Shown piece after piece: positions 7,036 to 63,445 of a stretch of DNA of 64,000 bases. The stretch comes from Escherichia coli (GTDB lineage: Bacteria > Pseudomonadota > Gammaproteobacteria > Enterobacterales > Enterobacteriaceae). How positions within the stretch are numbered: the first letter of the stretch is position 1; each line of letters opens with the position of its first letter. The position numbers and the translations under genes were made by a program. The stretch lies in NCBI RefSeq assembly GCF_029227855.1, contig NZ_CP074356.1; one strand, given 5' to 3'. A model generated the notes under the pieces. It saw only the letters and a program-made list of their open reading frames with translations, did no database searches and was not told where the DNA came from.

Positions 7036-7125
7036 GGAGAGATGCCGGAGCGGCTGAACGGACCGGTCTCGAAAACCGGAGTAGGGGCAACTCTACCGGG
7101 GGTTCAAATCCCCCTCTCTCCGCCA
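7036..7125 (+). tRNA. serU: tRNA-Ser (anticodon CGA); prophage attachment target
   Basis: GGAGAGATGCCGGAGCGGCTGAACGGACCGGTCTCGAAAACCGG...CCCCCTCTCTCCGCCA, 90 nt with long variable arm; its 3' 62 nt are repeated at 63384..63445. Confidence 0.9.
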
Positions 7126-18295: not shown

Positions 18296-19345
18296 GTGCG
18301 GGTATTACTTCGACCTGTTCTGGTACCGGAACTCGGGCTGGTGATCGTTAAGCCGGGCCGTGAATCCATGCCGGTATTCCACAATACCCGGTTACTGGTG
18401 GAGCCGGAACCGAAAAGCATGCGTAATCTGCCGTCCGGGGTCGTTCCTGCCGCTCGCCAGCCGCTGGTGGAAGACAAAACATTGCTGCCGTTTTTCAGTA
18501 ACGCACGGGTGATTCGTGCTGCTGGTGGTGCTGGTGCATTGTCTGACTGGCTGTTGCGCCATATTAAATCCTGCCAGTGGCCACACGGCGATTATCATCA
18601 CAGCGAAACCGTCATTCACCGTTATGGTACCGGCGCAATGGTGTTGTGCTGGCACTGCGACAACCAGCTGCGTGACCAGACATCCGAATCACTCGAGCAA
18701 GTTGCTCATCAAAACCTGTCAGCATGGATGATTGACGTCATCGGTCACGCAATAAGCGGTACGCAGGAGCGTGAATTATCTCTGGCTGAATTATCCTGGT
18801 GGGCGGTCCGCAATCAGGTGGCGGACGCGCTACCGGAAGCGGTATTACGTCGTTCGCTGGGGTTGCGTGCGGAAAAAATCCGCTCAATGTACCGTGAAAG
18901 CGACATCGTACCGGGAGAGCAGACCGCCACCAGCATACTGAAACAGCGCACAAAAAATCTTGCGCCGCTGCCTCACGCCCACCAGCAACAGAACCCACCA
19001 CAGGAAAAGACGGTGGTCAGCATTGCCGTTGATCCTGAGTCTCCGGAATCTTTCATGAAACGACCTAAACGTCGCCGCTGGGTTAACGAGAAATACACAC
19101 GCTGGGTGAAGACACAGCCGTGTGCGTGTTGTGGTAAGCCAGCCGACGATCCCCATCACCTGATTGGTCATGGTCAGGGCGGAATGGGGACAAAATCTCA
19201 CGATATTTTCACGCTACCGCTGTGTCGGGAGCATCACAACGAGCTTCATGCGGATCCGCTGGCGTTCGAAGAAAAGCATGGTTCTCAGGTTGATTTAATT
19301 TTTCGTTTTCTTGATCACGCCTTTGCAACTGGCGTGCTTGGGTAA
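18296..19345 (+). CDS. DUF968-family phage protein (YdfU-like), 349 aa
   Basis: GTG start with GGAGG RBS; C-terminal Cys/His cluster (CACCGKPADDPHHLIGHG...CREHHNELH); typical neighbour of rusA and Q. Confidence 0.75.
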   Translation: MRVLLRPVLVPELGLVIVKPGRESMPVFHNTRLLVEPEPKSMRNLPSGVVPAARQPLVEDKTLLPFFSNARVIRAAGGAGALSDWLLRHIKSCQWPHGDYHHSETVIHRYGTGAMVLCWHCDNQLRDQTSESLEQVAHQNLSAWMIDVIGHAISGTQERELSLAELSWWAVRNQVADALPEAVLRRSLGLRAEKIRSMYRESDIVPGEQTATSILKQRTKNLAPLPHAHQQQNPPQEKTVVSIAVDPESPESFMKRPKRRRWVNEKYTRWVKTQPCACCGKPADDPHHLIGHGQGGMGTKSHDIFTLPLCREHHNELHADPLAFEEKHGSQVDLIFRFLDHAFATGVLG

Positions 19346-19357
19346 AAGAGGTGACTG

Positions 19358-19732
19358 ATGCTCATAGATTTGGTTTTACCTTACCCGCCGACGGTGAACA
19401 CTTACTGGCGACGCCGTGGCAGCACATATTTTATCTCGGAGGAGGGAAAGCGTTATCGCCGTGCTGTGGCGCTTATTGTTCGCCAGCAGCGGCTGAAATT
19501 AAGCCTGTCCGGAAGGCTGGCGATAAAGGTGATTGCAGAGCCACAGGATAAGCGTCGTCGCGACCTGGACAATATCCTGAAAGCACCGCTGGATGCGCTG
19601 ACGCATGCGGGAGTGTTAATGGACGATGAGCAGTTTGATGAAATCAATATCGTTCGTGGTCAGCCAGTATCTGGTGGACGTCTGGGGGTGAAGATTTACC
19701 CCATAATGCATGAAGAGCAGGTCAAAAAATGA
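19358..19732 (+). CDS. rusA: Holliday-junction resolvase RusA
   Basis: 124 aa with ..NTYWRRRG..RRRDLDNILKAPLDALT.. RusA motifs. Confidence 0.85.
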   Translation: MLIDLVLPYPPTVNTYWRRRGSTYFISEEGKRYRRAVALIVRQQRLKLSLSGRLAIKVIAEPQDKRRRDLDNILKAPLDALTHAGVLMDDEQFDEINIVRGQPVSGGRLGVKIYPIMHEEQVKK

Positions 19733-20550
19733 AACTGGAAGATTTACCGAAATACTACTCCCCAAAATCCCCTTGCCTGACCGATGCATCGGCCTCAACG
19801 TCAAAAGATGCGCTGAGTATCACTGATGTGATGGCCGCGCAGGGCATGACACAGAATCGGGCTGAGATGGGGTTTTCTGCGTTCCTGGGGAAGATGGGCA
19901 TCAGTATGAATGACAGGGCGCGGGCAACAGAATTACTGGCAGATTATGCACTCAGTCGGTGCGATCGTGTGGCGGCGTTGAGAAAACTTCCGGCAGAAAT
20001 AAAACCGGTAGTGATGCGCATTATGGCTTCGTGCGCTTTTGAGGATTATGCCCGCAGCGCAGCGAGTAAAAAGCTGTGCCCTTGTTGCTATGGGGAAAAA
20101 TTTATTGAAAGCGTAGTTTTTACAAACAAGGTCCAGTATCCGGATGGTAAGCCGCCGGTATGGGCAAAGTGTACGAAAGGTGTGTATCCGTCTTACTGGG
20201 AAGAATGGAAAAAAGTCAGGGAGGTGGTAAAAGTTGCCTGTCCGGAGTGTGGCGGGAAGGGTGAGGTTTCCACCGCCTGTAAGGATTGCCGTGGGCGTGG
20301 TGTCGCCATTCATCGTGAAGAGTCGGTAAAACGTGGTATGCCTGTTATCAGAGACTGCCAGCGTTGTGGTGGTCGTGGCTATGAAAGGCTACCATCAACG
20401 GAGGCATTTAATGCTATATGCGAGGTGACAAACCAGATAACACGCGCGTCATGGGAAAAAACAGTTAAGAAATTCTATGATGCGCTGGTGACCCGGTTTG
20501 ATATTGAAGAAGCATGGGCTGAGCGGCAGTTAAAAAAGGTAACTAGGTAA
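19729..20550 (+). CDS. Late-gene antiterminator Q
   Basis: 273 aa with Cys-rich zinc-binding region (CPECGGKGEVSTACKDCRGRG..CQRCGGRG); immediately upstream of a promoter/terminator pair and the lysis genes. Confidence 0.8.
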   Translation: MKLEDLPKYYSPKSPCLTDASASTSKDALSITDVMAAQGMTQNRAEMGFSAFLGKMGISMNDRARATELLADYALSRCDRVAALRKLPAEIKPVVMRIMASCAFEDYARSAASKKLCPCCYGEKFIESVVFTNKVQYPDGKPPVWAKCTKGVYPSYWEEWKKVREVVKVACPECGGKGEVSTACKDCRGRGVAIHREESVKRGMPVIRDCQRCGGRGYERLPSTEAFNAICEVTNQITRASWEKTVKKFYDALVTRFDIEEAWAERQLKKVTR

Positions 20551-20692: not shown

Positions 20693-20769
20693 CGGTCCTT
20701 TAGCTCAGTGGTGAGAGCGAGCGACTCATAATCGCCAGGTCGCTGGTTCAAATCCAGCAAGGGCCACCA
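20693..20769 (+). tRNA. Phage-borne tRNA with CAU anticodon (Met or lysidine-Ile2 type)
   Basis: GGTCCTTTAGCTCAGTGGTGAGAGCGAGCGACTCATAATCGCC...GGGCCACCA; cloverleaf folds. Confidence 0.85.
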
Positions 20770-20874
20770 TCACAAACCGCCATTAGCTTATCAGGAAGAG
20801 CAGACGACACGATAACAGGGGTGTTGGTGCGGGGGGGGGGCGGGTCCCCGATGGCGGTCCATTATCGGTATTCA

Positions 20875-20951
20875 GCGTTGTTAGCTCAGCCGGACAGAGC
20901 AATTGCCTTCTAAGCAATCGGTCACTGGTTCGAATCCAGTACAGCGCGCCA
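20875..20951 (+). tRNA. Phage-borne tRNA-Arg (anticodon UCU)
   Basis: GCGTTGTTAGCTCAGCCGGACAGAGCAATTGCCTTCTAAGCAATCGGTCACTGGTTCGAATCCAGTACAGCGCGCCA. Confidence 0.85.
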
Positions 20952-26168: not shown

Positions 26169-26339
26169 GAGGTTGCCCTGTATTCAGTGTCGCTGATTTG
26201 TATTGTCTGAAGTTGTTTTTACGTTAGGTTGATGCAGATCAATTAATACGATACCTGCGTCATAATTGATTATTTGACGTGGTTTGATGGCCTCCACGCA
26301 CGTTGTGATATGTAGATGATAATCATTATCGCTTTACGG

Positions 26340-26540
26340 GTCCTTTCCGGTGATCCGACAGGTTACGGGGCGGCGACCTCGCGGGTTTTCGCTATTTATG
26401 AAAATTTTCTGGGGAAAATCATGTCGGTACTTCTCGAACATAACTATTTGTTTTTTCTAATATCGAATCCGTAAAAGGTCCGACATGAAAACGCCTAAAA
26501 AAGTCATTTTCGGGCACTTTCATGTCGGCCCCTGTATTTA
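26340..26540 (+). other. Prophage cos site: lambda-identical cosN (cohesive end GGGCGGCGACCT at 26369..26380) with a non-lambda cosB (three CATGTCGG-type elements)
   Basis: ACGGGTCCTTTCCGGTGATCCGACAGGTTACG|GGGCGGCGACCT|CGCGGGTTTTCGCTATTTATGAAAATTTTC matches lambda; downstream repeats differ from lambda R sites. Confidence 0.8.
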
Positions 26541-27101: not shown

Positions 27102-30782
<3,681 letters not shown>

Positions 30783-32499: not shown

Positions 32500-32775
32500 A
32501 TGTCGATGTACACAACCGCCCAGCTGCTGGCGGCAAATGAGCAGAAATTTAAGTTTGATCCGCTGTTTCTGCGTCTCTTTTTCCGTGAGAGCTATCCCTT
32601 CACCACGGAGAAAGTCTATCTCTCACAAATTCCGGGGCTGGTAAACATGGCGCTGTACGTTTCGCCGATTGTTTCCGGTGAGGTTATCCGCTCCCGTGGC
32701 GGCTCCACCTCTGAATTTACGCCGGGATATGTCAAGCCGAAGCACTTAGCATGGCTTTCTGAGGCTTTCGTGTAG
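32500..32775 (+). pseudogene. E: Major capsid protein E, 5' fragment (codons 1-82) disrupted by insertion
   Basis: MSMYTTAQLLAANEQKFKFDPLFLRLFFRESYPF...EFTPGYVKPKH matches lambda gpE, then reads into foreign sequence (LAWLSEAFV, stop at 32775). Confidence 0.85.
32735..32744 (+). repeat. Left copy of 10-bp direct repeat AGCCGAAGCA (putative att core of the inserted element)
   Basis: Identical 10-mer at 43864..43873 exactly where E homology resumes. Confidence 0.6.
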
Positions 32776-32907
32776 CTGCTGGTTTTTACACTTAATCTTT
32801 TGATAATAAAGAATAAGTTTATCTGGCGCTTTCACTGAATTTTCCTCGTTATCTGTGTGTTGCAATCATCTCTGTATTGCAGCTTGTATTGCTTTTTGGG
32901 GCTAAAA

Positions 32908-34143
32908 ATGGCTGGCGAGAACAAACTGAGCGACAAAGCGCTTAAAGGATATCTGGGGAAACCCAGAGAAAAGCAGATCACCATTGCTGATGGAAAGGGG
33001 CTTTCTATTCGTGTGAGTACTAAAGGGGCTGTGAGCTTTGTTTTCTTCTACAGGTTAGCAGGTGGCCGGGCTGCTCCGGTCTGGCTAACGTTGGGTAAAT
33101 ATCCTGATATGTCACTCAAACAGGCAAGGGAAAAGCGCGACGAGTGCCGTGGTTGGTTGGCTGACAAACGTGATCCGCGTATCCAGATTAAGATTCAGGC
33201 TGAAGAACGCTTAAAGCCGGTCACAGTGGAGGATGCACTAAATTACTGGTATGAAAATTACTGTAAGGTGCGTCGTAAAACTCATGCTGTAACGCTTGGC
33301 AGATTTCGAAAGCATATCTTTCCCTATATCGGTCATTTGCCCGTAAATGACACTCACCTATATGAATAGCTGGACTGTTTTGACCGAATTAAACGTAATG
33401 CACCAGTTATGGCGGCGTATGTTTTTTCTGACACTAAATTAGCTCTTCGTTTTTGTCGGGTACGCCAGTACGCGACGTGTGATGCTTTAAAGGATTTGCG
33501 CATGAGTGATGTGGGGCAGATTGCAGGTAAGCGGGATCGGGTTCTGGATGAGGTCGAACTCGGCCAGCTCTGGAAGGCAATTTTTGTCGAGCCTGATTTA
33601 AAACTAATGTCTGAATACACGCGAAAAATGTTTGTGCTTTGTACAGTATTTGGATGTCGAATGAGTGAAGCCCGATTATCAGAATGGAGCGAATGGGATC
33701 TCGAAAGTTGGGTTTGGACTGTGCCAAAAGATCACTCAAAAACTGGTGTTGAAATCGTCAGACCAGTACCTGAAATTCTACGACAGTGGGTAACGGATGT
33801 TCACGAAGAGACAAAACATACTGGTTATGTGCTGGGAAGTCTGCGAATTAGAGAAAGCGTAAGCAAGATTGGGGGGAAAATCGGTAAACGTTTGGGCCAT
33901 GAAAAACAATGGTCACTACACGACCTTAGAAGAACGCTATCTACTCATCTAAGTGATCTCGGTGTTGAATTTTATGTAGTAGAACAACTGTTAGGCCATG
34001 CGCTACCTGGCGTGGCAGGTGTTTACAACCGGAGTAAGTTTATGGCTAAAAAACTGGATGCTCTGGAACTCTGGACTACATATCTCAATAGCATCGCAGC
34101 TGCTGATTCAAAAGTGACAATCCTCAAACAAAAGGCTGGTTAG
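32908..34143 (+). pseudogene. int: P4-type tyrosine integrase interrupted by an in-frame amber codon (TAG at 33367..33369)
   Basis: Track ORFs 32857..33369 and 33409..34143 are in the same frame; P4-int-like N-terminus (..KGLSIRVSTKGAVSFVFFYR..GKYPDMSLKQAREKRDE..); TAG sits where homologues have Trp. Confidence 0.8.
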
Positions 34144-34144
34144 C

Positions 34145-34375
34145 ATGAAAAAAATGGCAATTGTTGATAAAAAGGGTCTGGAGTACATTCCTAACATTGA
34201 CCGAATGATCCGTGAGAAAGAATGTCGGGAGCTAACTACTCTTGCGAACAGCACACGCTGGAAGCTGGAGAAGGAAGGAAAATTTCCTAAGCGGATCAAG
34301 ATTGGTTCCACTGCTGTTGCATATCGTCTTTCAGAAGTGCAGGCATGGATTCGAGGTGAGTGGGAAACAACTTAA
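34145..34375 (+). CDS. alpA: AlpA-family transcriptional regulator / excisionase-like protein
   Basis: 76 aa, HTH (..CRELTTLANSTRWKLEKEGKFPKRIKIGSTAVAYRLSEVQAWI..) directly after int. Confidence 0.75.
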   Translation: MKKMAIVDKKGLEYIPNIDRMIREKECRELTTLANSTRWKLEKEGKFPKRIKIGSTAVAYRLSEVQAWIRGEWETT

Positions 34376-36871: not shown

Positions 36872-37171
36872 ATGGAAATGAAAAATTCTGGCTTTATTGC
36901 CAGCGGCCCCGCTCGGCCTGAATTTATGAACGGCGATATTTACCGCGATAAATACGGCGGCACGGTAACGATTAAAGGCGTGGCAGAACGGCGCATCACT
37001 TACCGCCGTGAGGGGTATAGCTATGACTGCGTGATGCCTGTTTATCAGTTCCGGCGTGATTTTTCCCTGGTATATGCCGCACCCCGCAGTAAGCCCATCA
37101 GCAGGGAAAAAGCGCGGGGAAACATCCAGAAAATGAAAAGCATGATTAACGCATTCAGGGGCAAAAAATGA
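36872..37171 (+). CDS. Small hypothetical satellite protein (99 aa)
   Basis: Track ORF, stop overlaps primase start. Confidence 0.45.
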   Translation: MEMKNSGFIASGPARPEFMNGDIYRDKYGGTVTIKGVAERRITYRREGYSYDCVMPVYQFRRDFSLVYAAPRSKPISREKARGNIQKMKSMINAFRGKK

Positions 37172-38919
37172 AACTGGCACCGAACTTAAAAAAACAGCCA
37201 CGCGACAGACTGACAGAGGTAATCATCTTTGCAGGTAGTGATGCGTGGAGCCATGCGAAAGAGTGGCGGGAATGGGCGGGTAAACATATTGCCGCCGACG
37301 ATGTGCCGCCTGTCGTGCTGGCTGATGAGCAACTGAAAAATATCACCGATTACCGGATCATTGATGAAGATCGTCAGTGTGTGCGTGTTTACCGCGCAGG
37401 ACATATCACAGAGCACAGCATGACGCAGATTGTTACGTTACTGGCTGTGGCTGGAGTGAAGACCGTACACGAATACGCGGGGATTACTGACACCAGCCCA
37501 GTGGATTTATCCGAGCAGTTGCCGCGACTCAAAGAGGAATGCGAGCGTGGGGAAAGTCTGGTGCTTAATCTTCCGACGAAGCAAAAGGCGCAACTTTCAC
37601 AGATGGCAGACAGTGAACGTGCACAACTACTTGCCGATCGCTTTGATGGTGTGTGTGTTCATGCAGAAAGTGAAATCGTCCACGTATGGCGCGGCGGGGT
37701 ATGGTGTCCGGTCAGCACAATGGAGCTGAGCCGCGAAATGGTGGCGATCTATTCAGAGCACAGGGCCACGTTCAGCAAACGTGTAATCAATAACGCCGTG
37801 GAAGCGTTAAAAGTTATTGCCGACCCCATGGGGGAGCCGTCCGGTGATTTGCTACCGTTCACTAATGGTGTGCTTAACCTGAAAACGGGGGAATTTTCTC
37901 CGCACTCGCCGGAGCACTGGAGCACCACGCACAATGGCATTGAGTACACGCCACCAGTAGCAGGGGAAAACATCCGCGATAATGCGCCAAATTTCCATAA
38001 ATGGCTTGAACATGCTGCAAGAAAAGACCCGCGCAAGATGATGCGTATATGTGCCGCGTTATACATGATTATGGCGAACCGCTACGACTGGCAGATGTTC
38101 ATTGAGGCCACCGGAGACGGGGGAAGCGGTAAGAGTACATTTACCCATATTGCCACCCTGCTTGCTGGCAAACAGAACACCGTAAGCGCGGAGATGACAT
38201 CACTCGATGATGCAGGAGGGCGCGCGCAGGTTGTCGGGAGTCGTCTTATCGTCCTTGCCGATCAGCCGAAATATACGGGGGAAGGCACGGGCATCAAGAA
38301 AATCACGGGAGGCGATCCCGTTGAAATTAACCCGAAATATGAGAAGCGATTCACGACGATAATAAGGGCGGTGGTACTGGCAACCAATAACGACCCGATG
38401 ATCTTTACCGAACGGGCCGGAGGTGTGTCACGCCGTCGGGTGATTTTCCGGTTCGACAACATTGTAAGGGAGGACGAAAAAGACAAGGAATTACCGGAAA
38501 AGATAGCGGCAGAAATCCCCGTAATTATCCGCCGCTTGCTGGCTAATTTTGCTGACCCTGAAAAGGCACGGGCTTTATTACTGGAACAGCGTGACGGTGA
38601 TGAAGCTCTGGCAATAAAGCAGCAAACGGATCCGGTTGTTGAGCTTTGCGCGGCGCTGGAGTTTCTGGAGGAAGCTCGTGGGCTAATGATGGGCGGTGGT
38701 GGTGACACCGTGAAGTACACGACCAGAAACAGCCTTTACCGTGTCTATATGGCCTTCATGGCATACACAGGAAAGGGGAAATGTTTGAGCGTGAATGAGT
38801 TCGGAAAGGCTATGAGGTCAGCGGCGAAAGTTTACGGATATGAATATATTACGCGAAAAGTTAAGGGAGTCACGCAGACCAACGCAACGACTACTGATGA
38901 TTGCGATGCGTTTTTATAA
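37168..38919 (+). CDS. Primase/replicase (P4 alpha / D5-type), 583 aa
   Basis: Walker A GDGGSGKST in the C-terminal half; large N-terminal domain; followed by iterons. Confidence 0.8.
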   Translation: MKLAPNLKKQPRDRLTEVIIFAGSDAWSHAKEWREWAGKHIAADDVPPVVLADEQLKNITDYRIIDEDRQCVRVYRAGHITEHSMTQIVTLLAVAGVKTVHEYAGITDTSPVDLSEQLPRLKEECERGESLVLNLPTKQKAQLSQMADSERAQLLADRFDGVCVHAESEIVHVWRGGVWCPVSTMELSREMVAIYSEHRATFSKRVINNAVEALKVIADPMGEPSGDLLPFTNGVLNLKTGEFSPHSPEHWSTTHNGIEYTPPVAGENIRDNAPNFHKWLEHAARKDPRKMMRICAALYMIMANRYDWQMFIEATGDGGSGKSTFTHIATLLAGKQNTVSAEMTSLDDAGGRAQVVGSRLIVLADQPKYTGEGTGIKKITGGDPVEINPKYEKRFTTIIRAVVLATNNDPMIFTERAGGVSRRRVIFRFDNIVREDEKDKELPEKIAAEIPVIIRRLLANFADPEKARALLLEQRDGDEALAIKQQTDPVVELCAALEFLEEARGLMMGGGGDTVKYTTRNSLYRVYMAFMAYTGKGKCLSVNEFGKAMRSAAKVYGYEYITRKVKGVTQTNATTTDDCDAFL

Positions 38920-38935
38920 AAAATGGCAATGGTTA

Positions 38936-39170
38936 TCTACCTTGTCTACCTGACTGAAAGAAAATACTTTTATTTCAATGTATTAATGCAGGTAGATAAC
39001 TATTTTTCACTGTCTACCTGTTATCTACCTTATCTACCCATTTTTGTAGACAGGTAAGGAGACGGGTAGAGATGAGGTAGACAGCTATTTGGGGCTGTCT
39101 ACCTCCCTGAAACCCGCGCCATTACTGGCCTGATAACTAATCAGGTAGACAAGGTAGACAAGGTGGTGGT
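38936..39170. repeat. Iteron array (putative satellite replication origin)
   Basis: About 12 copies of (A/G)TCTACC / GGTAGA(C/T) in both orientations within ~235 bp. Confidence 0.7.
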
Positions 39171-40128: not shown

Positions 40129-41169
40129 ATGGTTGATTTATATTCGCCTACTCAGCTTGTACAGGTAGTTAATGCTGTAGATGTACAAAAACAACTAAAT
40201 GCGTTGTTTACCAGTTTGTTTTTTACTCGCTCGGTAATGTTTGAATCGCGCGATATTATTCTTGATACAATCGACGATCCAAATATCCCAATTGCAGCGT
40301 TTTGTTCTCCTATGGTGGGTAGTAAAGTTTCACGTGACGAAGGGTACGAATCAAAAACAATTCGTCCAGGCTATATGAAGCCGAAAAGCAGCATTGATCC
40401 AAATAAGTTAGCTGTGCGCCCTGCTGGTGTGTCACCTGAGCAATACAATGCTTTTGGGGCGCGTAATATTAAAGTTAAACAGGCGATTGTAAATCAGGCT
40501 AAAGCTATTCGTGCACGTATTGAATGGCTTGCTGTTCAGGCAATCACAACGGGGAAAAATATCATTGAGGGCGATGGTATTGAACGTTATGAGCTGGACT
40601 GGAATATAAAACCACAAAATATCATCACTCAGTCTGGCGGTACTGAGTGGTCAGGTAAGGATAAAGAAACTTTTGATCCAAATGATGATATTGAGAGCTA
40701 CGCAGAATTTAGTGAGGGCGTCACTAATATCATCATTATGGGTGGTAATGTATGGAAGAAATACCGTTCATTCAGAGCGATAAAAGAGGCTTTGGATACC
40801 CGTCGTGGTTCTAATTCCGAACTGGAAACGGCCCTTAAAGACCTTGGTGATTCGGTGAGTTTTAAAGGGTATATGGGCGATGTTGCGATTGTTGTTTACA
40901 GCGGGCGTTATACCGACGAGGACGGAACAGAAAAACATTTCCTTGATCCTGATTTGATGGTGCTTGGCAATACGGCTCTTCAGGGGATTGTCGCCTATGG
41001 CGGTATTCAGGATCCGGAGCTAATCCGAATGGGGCTGACTAAAGCCGAACTTGCACCGAAAAACTATATTGTGCCTGGTGATCCGGCTATTGAATATGTG
41101 CAGACACATTCAGCACCACAGCCAATACCGGCCCGCATCAATCGTTTTGTTACCGTTCGCATTGGCTAA
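40129..41169 (+). CDS. Satellite-encoded major capsid protein, lambda gpE family (346 aa)
   Basis: Collinear similarity to gpE (ITQSGGTEWSGKDKETFDPNDDIESYA..., ..LDTRRGSNSELETALKDLG..GDVAIVVYSGRY..MVLGNT..); start set at MVDLYSPTQ with AGGA RBS. Confidence 0.8.
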   Translation: MVDLYSPTQLVQVVNAVDVQKQLNALFTSLFFTRSVMFESRDIILDTIDDPNIPIAAFCSPMVGSKVSRDEGYESKTIRPGYMKPKSSIDPNKLAVRPAGVSPEQYNAFGARNIKVKQAIVNQAKAIRARIEWLAVQAITTGKNIIEGDGIERYELDWNIKPQNIITQSGGTEWSGKDKETFDPNDDIESYAEFSEGVTNIIIMGGNVWKKYRSFRAIKEALDTRRGSNSELETALKDLGDSVSFKGYMGDVAIVVYSGRYTDEDGTEKHFLDPDLMVLGNTALQGIVAYGGIQDPELIRMGLTKAELAPKNYIVPGDPAIEYVQTHSAPQPIPARINRFVTVRIG

Positions 41170-41178
41170 GGGGGAGCA

Positions 41179-41520
41179 ATGGCTACTCATTACACTGAAC
41201 TCATGGCTGGCACTGAAGCACTGGTGACTACGCTGGGGATATTTTCAGCTAATAAAGGGGTAATTCCTGCATTTACGCCACTGATGCAGGAAGATGCAAC
41301 AGGTGCACTGGTGGTATGGGATGGTTCGAGCGTAGGTAAAGCGGTTTATGTTTCCGCTGTACAAATCGACACCGCGAAAAAAACACAGGCTCAGGTCTAT
41401 AAGACAGGTGTCTTAAATGTTGATGCTCTGAACTGGCCTGAGTCTGTTAAAGAACTGTCAGTAAAGGTTGCAGCGTTTGTTGGCTCAGGTATTTCTGTTC
41501 AGCCGCTGGCTCGTGTGTAA
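41179..41520 (+). CDS. Satellite-encoded head decoration protein, lambda gpD-like (113 aa)
   Basis: Shares THY, TPLM, LVVWDG, YKTG, WPE, AF.G..IS motifs with gpD at matching positions. Confidence 0.7.
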   Translation: MATHYTELMAGTEALVTTLGIFSANKGVIPAFTPLMQEDATGALVVWDGSSVGKAVYVSAVQIDTAKKTQAQVYKTGVLNVDALNWPESVKELSVKVAAFVGSGISVQPLARV

Positions 41521-41939: not shown

Positions 41940-42145
41940 GCGGGTCCTTTCCGGCGATCCAGAACGTTACGGGGCGTCAGGCGCGCAGTTTTTCGCTATT
42001 TGTGAAAATTTTCCTGTTTAAGGCGTTTCCGTTCTTCTTCGCCGTAACTTAATGTTTTTATTAAAAACACCCCCTAAAAAGAAAGGAAACGACAGGTGCT
42101 AAAAACAGGCTTTTTGGCCTCTGTCGTTTCCTTTCTCTGGTTTTG
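41940..42145 (+). other. Second cos site, belonging to the satellite: altered cohesive-end sequence (GGGCGTCAGGCG at 41972..41983) with lambda-type cosB elements
   Basis: GGGTCCTTTCCGGCGATCC..GTTACG|GGGCGTCAGGCG|CGCAGTTTTTCGCTATTTGTGAAAATTTTCCTGTTTAAGGCGTTTCCGTTCTTCTTCG..GAAAGGAAACGACAGGTG..TCTGTCGTTTCCTTTCTC tracks lambda cos closely. Confidence 0.75.
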
Positions 42146-42481
42146 TTGCCATCCGTCGCGGTCTATCACCAGAAAAAATCTTATCCCTGAGTTGAATCAG
42201 GCCCTATTCAGAAGCGGCCAATAACGCGCCGCTAGCTTCACTTCATAGTTATGGCCTACTTCTGCGCCATTGCAATTGCTTTATGCGCCTTGATGGTGGA
42301 ATATAGAGCAAGCAGTTTGCGAATAACAAAGTTTCATATGTTTTTTGCTGTGTGGCTAGACAACTTTACAGCAGAGTTTTGTGTCAGTTCTTTATGTGTG
42401 CAAGCAAGCTTGAGGGGGAATTACTTCTGGCTGTATCTTTGCTTAAGAACAGCAATAATTTAATCATAAGGAAATGTATAT

Positions 42482-42513: not shown

Positions 42514-43656
42514 TTAACTCCTTATTAGAGAGTAAATTCCATCCTCTTTAAGGAAGTCTATTACTTCAAAGAATGAGATAAAGAATTCCCAAGAACCAAA
42601 AGCATATGCATGAATTTCGTAAGGTGCAAAATGGAATCTAAATCCATCACTATTTATTGTGAACGAGTCTAAGTTACTATCCATGATACCCGTTGCAAAC
42701 GTACTAATGTCGTCCTCACTTGGTTTTTCACCAGTTTTCTCCCAAAATTCACGAGCTGATTCAGAGATTATTTTTTGTTTTATCTTATTAATCGCTTCTT
42801 GCTCTTTCCCTTCGGTAAATACATCCCATAAACTAAATTTGTATGCGTAGTCATCCTTGGTTATTACGAAATTACTAGTTTCAAAATGACTGTTAGGGTG
42901 TGCTGCTCCCGCACCATACCAATGTACGGAATGAAGGATGCTCATGACATTTTCGTTACAGTATGAGATGTTATAACTTTCATTATAGGAACTAGTGTAA
43001 GTGTGTTTATATTCTTCATCCCAATATGGTGTTCCTGGCCATAGTGATGTGCGTTCAGAAAAAATATGTAAAGCCGCTTTTCCTGAAAAGTAATCACTAA
43101 TGAGTTTTGCTGATTTCGGTAATGTATGGCTTTCAATTCTTGGATATGCTATTTCAATTTCATGCCCTGGGATCTTGTTATATTCTTCCTTGAAAACCTC
43201 GCTGCTAAAGTTAAATGGCCCATAAGTGATACCTTGAGATATTTCAAGTTTTTGTTGCGATGCTGCTAATCTTAAAGATCTAGATAAAATGTCCCAACCA
43301 TCATTTCTCTTAAAATCAATGAATTGGAGCTTGCTTGATATGTAGGCGGGTACTTCGCAATCATCAATAAGTAATGGTATCACGAACACATCATCTGGTT
43401 TGTAATACTTTAGTTTATCAATGGCGTCATTTATTTCGCGGCGAATATAACCATTTTTCTGAGTGCTCACTTTGCTAAGGATAAGGATTATCAAGTTTGA
43501 ATTAGCGAAGTTTTTTTGGATTTCATAATCCCAGTTTACGCCAGCGGGTATATCTTTTACATCCATCCAAGGGGAATATCCTCCACTTTTTAGCCTTTCA
43601 TAGATTTCTTCAGTTATCGTTTCATCTTCTTTTGCATGAGCAAGAAAAATTTTCAT
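42514..43656 (-). CDS. TIR-domain protein with ~250-aa C-terminal domain of unknown function (380 aa); candidate anti-phage defence gene
   Basis: N-terminus MKIFLAHAKEDE...SNLIILILSKVS..YIRREINDAIDK..VIPLLIDD fits the bacterial TIR pattern; AAGGA RBS; AT-rich; between satellite cos and right att repeat. Confidence 0.75.
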   Translation of the reverse strand: MKIFLAHAKEDETITEEIYERLKSGGYSPWMDVKDIPAGVNWDYEIQKNFANSNLIILILSKVSTQKNGYIRREINDAIDKLKYYKPDDVFVIPLLIDDCEVPAYISSKLQFIDFKRNDGWDILSRSLRLAASQQKLEISQGITYGPFNFSSEVFKEEYNKIPGHEIEIAYPRIESHTLPKSAKLISDYFSGKAALHIFSERTSLWPGTPYWDEEYKHTYTSSYNESYNISYCNENVMSILHSVHWYGAGAAHPNSHFETSNFVITKDDYAYKFSLWDVFTEGKEQEAINKIKQKIISESAREFWEKTGEKPSEDDISTFATGIMDSNLDSFTINSDGFRFHFAPYEIHAYAFGSWEFFISFFEVIDFLKEDGIYSLIRS

Positions 43657-43863
43657 TGAATATTCCTTTATAATTTAACTAATTAAGTGAAGGAGGCTTT
43701 ACTTGGCTGTGTTAGAAAAAATTCGGTTTGTTTTTTGTACGATGCCAAGAAGGCTTTTCCCTAACCATGTATTGCAGCATGTATTGCTACGTAATTCTGC
43801 ACCCTCTCATTTATAAAATAAATCTCTGTTAAATCAAGTATCTTTTTTCTATTTGACTCATGT

Positions 43864-43873
43864 AGCCGAAGCA
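43864..43873 (+). repeat. Right copy of 10-bp direct repeat AGCCGAAGCA
   Basis: Identical to 32735..32744; E reading frame resumes immediately after. Confidence 0.6.
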
Positions 43874-44699
43874 TGAGGTGAATCCGCAGATGACCCTGCG
43901 TCGCCTGCCGGATGAAGATCCGCAGAATCTGGCGGACCCGGCTTACCGCCGCCGTCGCATCATTATGCAGAACATGCGTGACGAAGAGCTGGCCATTGCC
44001 CAGGTCGAAGAGATGCAGGCAGTTTCTGCCGTGCTTAAGGGCAAATACACCATGACCGGTGAAGCCTTCGATCCGGTTGAGGTGGATATGGGCCGCAGTG
44101 AGGCGAATAACATCACGCAGTCCGGCGGCACGGAGTGGAGCAAGCGTGACAAGTCCACGTATGACCCGACCGACGATATCGAAGCCTACGCGCTGAACGC
44201 CAGCGGAGTGGTGAATATCATCGTGTTTGATCCGAAAGGCTGGGCGCTGTTCCGTTCCTTCAAAGCCGTCAAGGAGAAGCTGGATACTCGTCGCGGCTCT
44301 CATTCCGAGCTGGAGACAGCGGTGAAAGACCTGGGCAAAGCGGTGTCCTACAAGGGGATGTATGGCGATGTGGCCATCGTCGTGTATTCCGGACAGTACG
44401 TGGAAAACGGCGTCAAAAAGAACTTCCTGCCGGACAACACGATGGTGCTGGGGAACACTCAGGCACGCGGTCTGCGCACCTATGGCTGCATTCAGGATGC
44501 GGACGCACAGCGCGAAGGCATTAACTCCTCTGCCCGTTACCCGAAAAACTGGGTGACCACCGGCGATCCGGCGCGTGAGTTCACCATGATTCAGTCAGCA
44601 CCGCTGATGCTGCTGGCTGACCCTGATGAGTTCGTGTCCGTACAACTGGCGCAATCGTGGCCCTTCGGGGCCATTTTCTCTCTGTGGAGGAGTCCATGA
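43866..44699 (+). pseudogene. E: Major capsid protein E, 3' fragment (codons ~80-341) plus 15-codon readthrough extension
   Basis: PKHEVNPQMTLRRLPDEDPQNLADPAYRRRRIIMQN... matches lambda gpE to ..DEFVSVQLA; the lambda stop position reads CAA here, so the frame runs to TGA at 44697..44699. Confidence 0.85.
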
Positions 44700-61459: not shown

Positions 61460-62791
61460 TTATTTTGAGTGAATTATCACCTTGTTTTTTCCGGTTCTTT
61501 TGGCTTGATATAACGCTTTGTCGGCATTGACTAACATTTCAGATGGACTGAGATTATTCTCTTTTGAAGCAAAGCAACCAATACTGACAGTTATTTTCTC
61601 AGGTCCATGCGATAATAATTTTTCCGAGCATTGCTCTTCAATGTTTTTTCTGATTCGCTCTGCAATTGATAGCAAGAGTTTTTGAGTATTACCTTTAATG
61701 ATAATACCGAACTCCTCACCGCCTAAGCGCCCTAATATATCCTCTTTCCTGATGGATTTTTTTATTATTCTGGTAACCATTACTATGACTTGATCACCCA
61801 TATGATGCCCCCATTTGTCATTGATGCTTTTGAAACTGTCAATATCTAACATTATTACTGAGAAATCATGGTGTTTTGATATATTCTTCAATGAGTCAAT
61901 AAAGTATCTTCTATTGTATGTATTCGTTAGTGGATCATGAATTGCCATATGATTAGCATGATTTAATTTCCTGAAAACATAATACATGAGTGTTGAAATG
62001 ATATAAATCATTGATATCAATTCAAGAAATTTTGTCATGTACCATGCAGGATGGGATTTATCAATAAAATACAATAAAATTAGATTATTGCATACTGACA
62101 CTATACTAATAAGTATTATACACAACCATATTTTTGAGTAATTACGTATGCTGATGCATGAGCTGATAAGTAATACAAGCCAAAATACTGATATTATTTT
62201 GGTGTACACGATATTCCACGTCGACAAATGACGATTCAGCGAGTATTGTATAATATTAAGACTATATTTTATATGGTCACTGCTTAGATTTTTTGCTACA
62301 AACGGAGTAATAAAAAGAATTAATATTGACAAAACAACAATTATTATGTTTCTTTTATCTTCTAAAATACTTTTATTTTTAACATTGGTGGAATAAACAG
62401 CCAGAAAGATTATAGATATAAAGCTGAACTGACGGAATAGATAATATATTGCGATATCATTTGATTTCTGATAGATTGTAGATAAATCGTTACCTAACGG
62501 AGATAAAGAAATAATAGCCACTTCTAATAAATAATACGTGTTGCTCAAAAACGCGAATGAAAGAATTAAGAGATAACTTTGTCTCTGATTAGAAACATAG
62601 TAAAGCAATAGAAAAATAAAAATCATCAGGTTTATGAAAAAAAGCCCAATAATGAAAACACTATAACTTATTTGTGTTGTTTGTGTTATGTATATTCCAT
62701 TATTTTCATGCAGTAACAAAAATATAATAGAGATGCATGAAAATAAAAAGATGAAGATTTTTATTTTTATAGGTACCTGGTTGATAATCAT
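61460..62791 (-). CDS. Membrane-anchored diguanylate cyclase (GGDEF domain), AT-rich moron at prophage right end
   Basis: N-terminal multi-TM region; C-terminal GGDEF with RLGGEEFGII active-site motif. Confidence 0.8.
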   Translation of the reverse strand: MIINQVPIKIKIFIFLFSCISIIFLLLHENNGIYITQTTQISYSVFIIGLFFINLMIFIFLLLYYVSNQRQSYLLILSFAFLSNTYYLLEVAIISLSPLGNDLSTIYQKSNDIAIYYLFRQFSFISIIFLAVYSTNVKNKSILEDKRNIIIVVLSILILFITPFVAKNLSSDHIKYSLNIIQYSLNRHLSTWNIVYTKIISVFWLVLLISSCISIRNYSKIWLCIILISIVSVCNNLILLYFIDKSHPAWYMTKFLELISMIYIISTLMYYVFRKLNHANHMAIHDPLTNTYNRRYFIDSLKNISKHHDFSVIMLDIDSFKSINDKWGHHMGDQVIVMVTRIIKKSIRKEDILGRLGGEEFGIIIKGNTQKLLLSIAERIRKNIEEQCSEKLLSHGPEKITVSIGCFASKENNLSPSEMLVNADKALYQAKRTGKNKVIIHSK

Positions 62792-63383: not shown

Positions 63384-63445
63384 CGGTCTCGAAAACCGGA
63401 GTAGGGGCAACTCTACCGGGGGTTCAAATCCCCCTCTCTCCGCCA
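63384..63445 (+). repeat. Prophage right attachment site: 62-bp copy of the serU 3' end
   Basis: CGGTCTCGAAAACCGGAGTAGGGGCAACTCTACCGGGGGTTCAAATCCCCCTCTCTCCGCCA identical to 7064..7125. Confidence 0.85.

Follow-up and report, generated by a model that had tools for sequence, protein, structure and literature searches.

A single nonsense mutation in the integrase gene of a phage satellite appears to have stranded both the satellite and the prophage that houses it. The window (the whole 64-kb stretch of Escherichia coli DNA analyzed here) contains a lambdoid helper prophage whose major capsid gene, E, is split by a PICI of the helper-embedded kind (HE-PICI), and the integrase gene of this satellite has an amber codon (TAG) at a position where its relatives have tryptophan (TGG). 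In the reading that we favor, to which we assign a probability of roughly 85%, this G:C to A:T knockout of the integrase (Int) immobilizes the satellite and probably cripples the helper as well. Taken by itself, the finding is an ordinary, lineage-specific pseudogenizing mutation in a satellite of an already published type, with a knock-on effect that is neat but predictable.

The amber codon and the integrase domains around it

The features of the integrase gene are as follows.

32908..34143 (+): HE-PICI tyrosine integrase gene, 411 codons, now a pseudogene
33367..33369 (+): premature amber codon, TGG to TAG (W154*), by G to A at 33368
32908..33366 (+): 153-codon N-terminal product that can still be made, with the full arm-binding domain and part of the core-binding domain

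The TAG shares its reading frame with the start codon (ATG, 32908) and the terminal stop (34141-34143); with 32908 as the first base, it is codon 154. The plus strand around it reads ...CAC CTA TAT GAA TAG CTG GAC..., which is the in-frame context HLYE-TAG-LDCFDRIKRNAPVMAAYVF at codon 154 that the preliminary description had reported. The length of 428 codons given there for the same frame was in error: 32908..34143 spans 1,236 nt, or 411 codons plus the stop, and 428 amino acids are obtained solely by starting from an upstream GTG at 32857. The intact homologue is annotated at 411 amino acids in RefSeq. In this single frame, 176 and 257 open codons lie on the two sides of the amber, and the remainder of the ORF has no second lesion.

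Further in-frame ambers could have pointed to a suppressor host or to poor assembly. In a six-frame scan of the 64 kb, the integrase TAG is the sole one that has long open flanks and lies within a real gene. The only other TAG with long open flanks, at 1814, was discarded; it is antisense to the yeeJ repeats and outside any gene. When 50 proteins of a related composite were compared with the window by tblastn, the integrase was again the only gene with an internal stop, all others being full-length and stop-free. This pattern exceeds chance. A mutational hotspot at 33368 was also considered; by reading of the sequence the site is outside a Dcm (CCWGG) context, so a hotspot explanation is unneeded.

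Is tryptophan really the expected residue? The two closest complete genomes have TGG at codon 154 (G at 33368) and encode an intact protein. Among the best 120 homologues (48-99% identity; from Escherichia, Klebsiella, Salmonella, Serratia, Xenorhabdus and others), column 154 of the alignment holds Trp in all 119 that have a residue there, and a gap in the other one; the position is among approximately 70 near-invariant positions. A comparison with homologues had been proposed at the outset as a check on the expected Trp, and the expectation is borne out, with TGG in every close relative examined. The earlier statement that P4-type integrases have Trp at this position holds for the integrase's own clade but does not extend to P4 Int itself, which is 25% identical and has a Lys aligned there by BLASTP. 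The other clone-specific change in the integrase, A216V, occurs at a variable position and is uninformative.

Pfam assigns an arm-binding domain to residues 7-93 (Arm-DNA-bind_3), a central core-binding domain to residues 113-198 (Phage_int_M) and a catalytic domain to residues 232-377, and residue 154 falls within the central one. The residues R251, K278, H338, R341, H364 and Y373 are invariant, and all six are downstream of codon 154. The arm-binding, core-binding and catalytic (R-K-H-R-H-Y) domains, which an uninterrupted ORF would link, are split by the stop at 154. There are in-frame ATGs 3' of the amber at 33409 and 33502; as judged from the domain layout, starts at these codons could at most give products with no arm-binding domain and with, at best, a portion of the core-binding domain.

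A rare allele shared by independent assemblies

How widely is the amber allele distributed? With a 55-mer query designed so that each 28-nt seed must contain the A, the TAG allele was absent from 5,426 complete E. coli genomes, 175 of which have the integrase region at 120/121 identity or slightly lower. Searches of IMG/VR with 35-mers found TAG in 0 contigs and TGG in 48, and the TAG 35-mer had no exact match among GTDB representative genomes. A one-base difference from all 175 complete-genome relatives is what one would see if the true base at 33368 were G, the integrase were intact and the A were a sequencing or assembly error, a possibility raised in the preliminary description. However, the same TAG allele is present in contigs of four to five independent runs (SRR5866348, SRR24058701, SRR18105866 with one further sample, and DRR063306). 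These contigs were found by exact-product look-up of the shortened products of 153, 244 and 213 amino acids, and the exact 153 amino acid product is called on Logan contigs. Over 1.6-6.5 kb at the site, the TAG contigs and the window agree at 100% identity, except that two contigs have a 7-bp deletion elsewhere. Further contigs of the TAG clone differ from the window at other sites, by 1-2 substitutions per 8-13 kb; since the clone-mates carry these differences, they represent separate isolates and assemblies, and the mutation has been inherited and is no artifact. Because the independent runs share the TAG allele, a sequencing error is effectively excluded, and we find it scarcely credible. 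Judged from these assemblies, the TAG is a real, rare and clonally inherited nonsense allele.

Three further contigs were tried as carriers of the 153 amino acid product and rejected; their sequence breaks off at the variable base, in two cases with TG, which is the TGG allele. Exact-protein look-ups with the repaired 411 amino acid protein and with GTG-started fragments gave no match, and the literature yielded nothing on the four SRA run accessions.

An HE-PICI inside the helper capsid gene

The helper prophage is marked out by the following features.

7064..7125 (+): left 62-bp repeat, 3' part of the tRNA-Ser gene serU, helper boundary
63384..63445 (+): right 62-bp serU repeat, helper boundary
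32500..32744 (+): 5' fragment of the helper major capsid gene E, codons 1-82
43874..44699 (+): remaining 3' part of this gene, with the TAA stop mutated to CAA at 44652

The satellite interrupts the lambda-like gene E after codon 82, as had been supposed in describing the element as trapped in gene E, and joining the two fragments at the att core rebuilds a lambda-gpE-like ORF. The rebuilt ORF matches, at 338 of 341 residues, what we take to be the sequence of lambda gpE. The composite of helper and satellite measures 56,320 bp, the helper alone 45,191 bp and the satellite 11,129 bp, with the integrase at the start of the satellite. Just inside the right prophage end, 61460-62791 (-) encodes a multi-pass membrane protein of 443 amino acids whose C-terminus bears a GGEEF motif of the diguanylate cyclase type; this is possibly a moron gene.

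The integrase had been likened to P4-type integrases. By its gene content and attachment sites the satellite is no P4-like element but an HE-PICI of the published Eco567.11capE type, and so of a known kind (PMC10111431). The prototype HE-PICI, Eco567.11capE of E. coli NRG857c, is 11 kb long and occupies the site E:Phage_cap_E:80 (Tommasini, Mageeney and Williams 2023, NAR Genom Bioinform, PMC10111431), at which 201 elements were found. Its attL/attR identity block is 10 bp, and its two doubled motifs, tgTGTATTGCantgTGTATTGCa (TGTATTGC-n4-TGTATTGC), lie approximately 81 bp upstream and approximately 132 bp downstream of the attP center (PMC10111431). The corresponding features of the satellite in the window are listed below.

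32735..32744 (+): attL, 10-bp identity block AGCCGAAGCA, equal in length to the block reported for 11capE
43864..43873 (+): attR, 10-bp identity block AGCCGAAGCA, the same 10-bp core
32873..32892 (+): doubled TGTATTGC motif, putative arm-type site, ~133 bp in from attL, with the int ATG 15 nt downstream
43768..43787 (+): the other doubled TGTATTGC motif, with its end ~81 bp short of the attR core
34145..34375 (+): satellite AlpA-family regulator or excisionase
37168..38919 (+): satellite primase (D5_N/DUF5906), with iteron-like repeats after it (38932-39104)
40129-41169 (+): the satellite's own gpE-like major capsid gene
41179-41520 (+): the satellite's own gpD-like decoration gene
42514..43656 (-): cargo gene beside attR, encoding a TIR_2 + DUF3298 protein

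The two TGTATTGC copies on the attL side start at 32873 and 32885, the first of them 133.5 bp after the center of the attL core, and those on the attR side start at 43768 and 43780 and end 81.5 bp before the center of the attR core. The satellite agrees with the 11capE group in its gene E site, 10-bp block, doubled-motif spacing, integrase clade and gene organization. It shares with Eco567.11capE itself the site, the block, the distances of the doubled TGTATTGC motifs, a size of approximately 11 kb and the gene order int, alpA, dynamic zone, primase, SSB, capsid, decoration, HTH, cargo. The same arrangement follows the layout of Gram-negative PICIs: int-alpA, a dynamic zone, primase and ori, and a late zone with a capsid gene. 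Its gene set comprises Int, AlpA, DUF2971, SWIM, Icd-like, DUF4222, primase, SSB, gpE-like and gpD-like genes, together with a second AlpA-like HTH protein and the cargo by attR, and int, alpA and primase are all on the plus strand, the same strand as gene E. The integrase is 99% identical to that of NRG857c, from which it differs at A55D, V216A, A398G and the stop, and it shares a 90% cluster with 1,098 E. coli sequences; the int-alpA DNA is also 99% identical between the two elements.

Apart from W154*, the window satellite differs from Eco567.11capE in its dynamic zone, which has DUF2971 and SWIM genes, in its primase, whose DNA is approximately 74% identical over the sole aligned stretch of 302 nt, and in its cargo, which is TIR + DUF3298 here and HEPN + DUF262 there. 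Since NRG857c has HEPN + DUF262 in this slot beside attR, the slot looks like a variable hotspot with defense-type genes. The TIR N-terminus of the cargo resembles the TIR domains of PADLOC defense models, and the exact cargo protein is listed in approximately 2,600 blocks of a public index. The helpers differ too: that of Eco567.11capE sits at icd, whereas the helper in the window sits at serU, so one type of satellite is carried by helpers that differ in their chromosomal site.

P4 and P4-like satellites have in common with this element an arm-binding (DUF4102-type) integrase beside an AlpA-like gene, a large primase and helper dependence. In contrast to P4, with its distant Int and no Trp opposite residue 154, the window satellite carries gpE-like and gpD-like genes, and the helper around it is lambdoid rather than P2-like. 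The RefSeq annotation of relatives that are approximately 99% identical over the first 9.6 kb lists no sid, delta, psu or epsilon gene.

Two further stretches of the satellite deserve mention. In the LR-50 and NRG857c helpers, the region just upstream of the terminase small-subunit gene (nohD) has 88-90% identity to approximately 206 bp of the satellite (41940-42146), while the match to the window's own helper (26337-26409) is limited to 73 nt at 82%; by this similarity the stretch is probably a cos-like packaging site. The iteron-like direct repeats at 38932-39104, downstream of the primase gene, contain GTTATCTACCTTGTCTACC twice and AGGTAGAxAxCTATTT...CTGTCTACCT twice, and they are probably the PICI replication origin.

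Predicted consequences for the satellite and its helper

We propose that Trp154 (TGG) in the integrase of the 11.1-kb HE-PICI became an amber codon (TAG) by a spontaneous G:C to A:T transition, now fixed in one rare E. coli clone. Translation would end after residue 153, so that the arm-binding domain is kept while most of the core-binding domain and all of the catalytic domain are lost. With no catalytic domain on the 153 amino acid product, recombination between attL and attR would be impossible and satellite excision would be lost. Gene E of the helper would then stay split by 11 kb, and the 56.3-kb composite could not be trimmed to the packageable 45.2-kb helper. The composite has approximately 116% of the length of the lambda genome (48.5 kb), and it is the packaging limit of lambda that makes it presumably unpackageable. 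The amber would in this way immobilize the satellite and probably cripple the helper, as the first step to a fixed prophage remnant. In the prototype 11capE, the composite excises and replicates first, and excision of the satellite restores the capsid gene and is required for its expression (PMC10111431).

The preliminary description had offered, among other possibilities, a recent inactivating mutation that traps the satellite. That suggestion has fared best, given a Trp that is invariant in the clade, catalytic residues that are all downstream and a satellite and helper that are otherwise intact. Because every other gene of both elements is intact, the sequence indicates that the amber is recent.

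Two circumstances could soften the predicted outcome. The satellite's gpE and gpD homologues, which are approximately 45% and 38% identical to those of the helper over the aligned parts, might replace the helper capsid protein, and a possible substitution by the satellite's own gpE and gpD has been raised for the prototype by its authors too (PMC10111431). If so, the crippling of the helper is less certain than the immobilization of the satellite. Int may also be supplied in trans by a second related element elsewhere in the genome.

Could the amber be read through? A suppressor tRNA, as in the amber-suppressor host that had been suggested, or leaky near-cognate decoding of UAG would give some full-length Int and reduced mobility. 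Nothing in the window speaks for this reading, and the rest of the int ORF is free of a second lesion. None of the four tRNAs in the 64-kb window (Asn-GTT, Ser-CGA serU, Met-CAT and Arg-TCT) has a CUA anticodon, and serU, which is the supD locus, has the wild-type CGA anticodon. Other suppressor loci (glnV, tyrT and others) lie outside the window; natural isolates seldom carry amber suppressors. Those that are common put Gln, Tyr or Ser at the stop and not Trp, a poor fit for a position that is Trp in every homologue having a residue there. The clone also carries further lesions in the composite, described below, as expected if selection for transfer is gone. We regard read-through as highly improbable. 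The tRNA-Met (CAT) and tRNA-Arg (TCT) genes, neither of them a suppressor, are borne by the prophage (20694-20951), downstream of the antiterminator gene.

Beyond the integrase, the clone has two lesions in helper genes. The gene E stop codon at 44652-44654 has changed from TAA to CAA; gpE would gain 15 residues, and the extended ORF ends at a TGA (44697-44699) that overlaps the start of FI. Of the complete E. coli genomes, 197 match the surrounding 60-mer at 59/60 and lack this stop-loss; IAI39, which was checked directly, has T at 44652. It is common to GCA_017075055.1 and SRR18105866, the same clone as the int amber. The 7-bp deletion (GGGCGGC, window 30729-30735) is found at position 829 of the contigs from SRR18105866 and DRR063306 and shifts the frame of the helper portal gene close to its 3' end; the window is without it, and it is a lesion of a sub-lineage. 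The stop-loss and the deletion fit relaxed selection after immobilization but do not prove it, and they could be neutral or unrelated.

This integrase has been lost repeatedly, and such a loss is unremarkable. In IAI39 (CU928164.2, 533045-554187; locus 19111-20115), the same integrase is cut to 334 amino acids by an adjacent IS3-family transposase pair, and the 90% cluster contains shortened and frameshifted members. The IAI39 case resembles ours in that the recombinase is lost, the rest of the element is kept and the element is fixed in place. It differs in that IAI39-type pseudogenes result from an insertion or a frameshift, whereas the window has a single nonsense substitution, and in that the lesion in the window also blocks the restoration of a helper late gene.

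It is tempting to ask whether W154* has been kept because it benefits the host. Under such domestication, the satellite would be locked in gene E, an otherwise complete lambdoid prophage would be permanently disarmed and the TIR cargo would be retained; the free arm-binding fragment of Int may in addition sit on the doubled TGTATTGC motifs of the int promoter and the att arms. The allele does persist in a clone that has been sampled several times, the rest of the helper is intact, the cargo protein has a TIR domain, and the 153 amino acid product has a complete arm-binding domain, with a doubled motif 15 nt upstream of the int start. Yet the allele is rare (0/175 complete genomes and 0/48 IMG/VR contigs) and confined to one clone, as neutral hitch-hiking predicts, with no sign that the W154* mutation has recurred. 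Other losses of the integrase are heterogeneous (IS insertions, frameshifts), as random decay predicts. We therefore consider domestication improbable and prefer a simple knockout of Int.

A knockout of Int has several implications. For annotation, the integrase in this copy of the 11capE HE-PICI should be called pseudogenized, and the composite of helper and satellite in the TAG clone is probably non-transmissible. Studies of when HE-PICIs excise could use the isolate as a natural int-null control. More broadly, because the satellite lies inside one of the helper's late genes, one nonsense mutation in int can strand two mobile elements, and the window offers a natural example of this point, which is specific to helper-embedded satellites.
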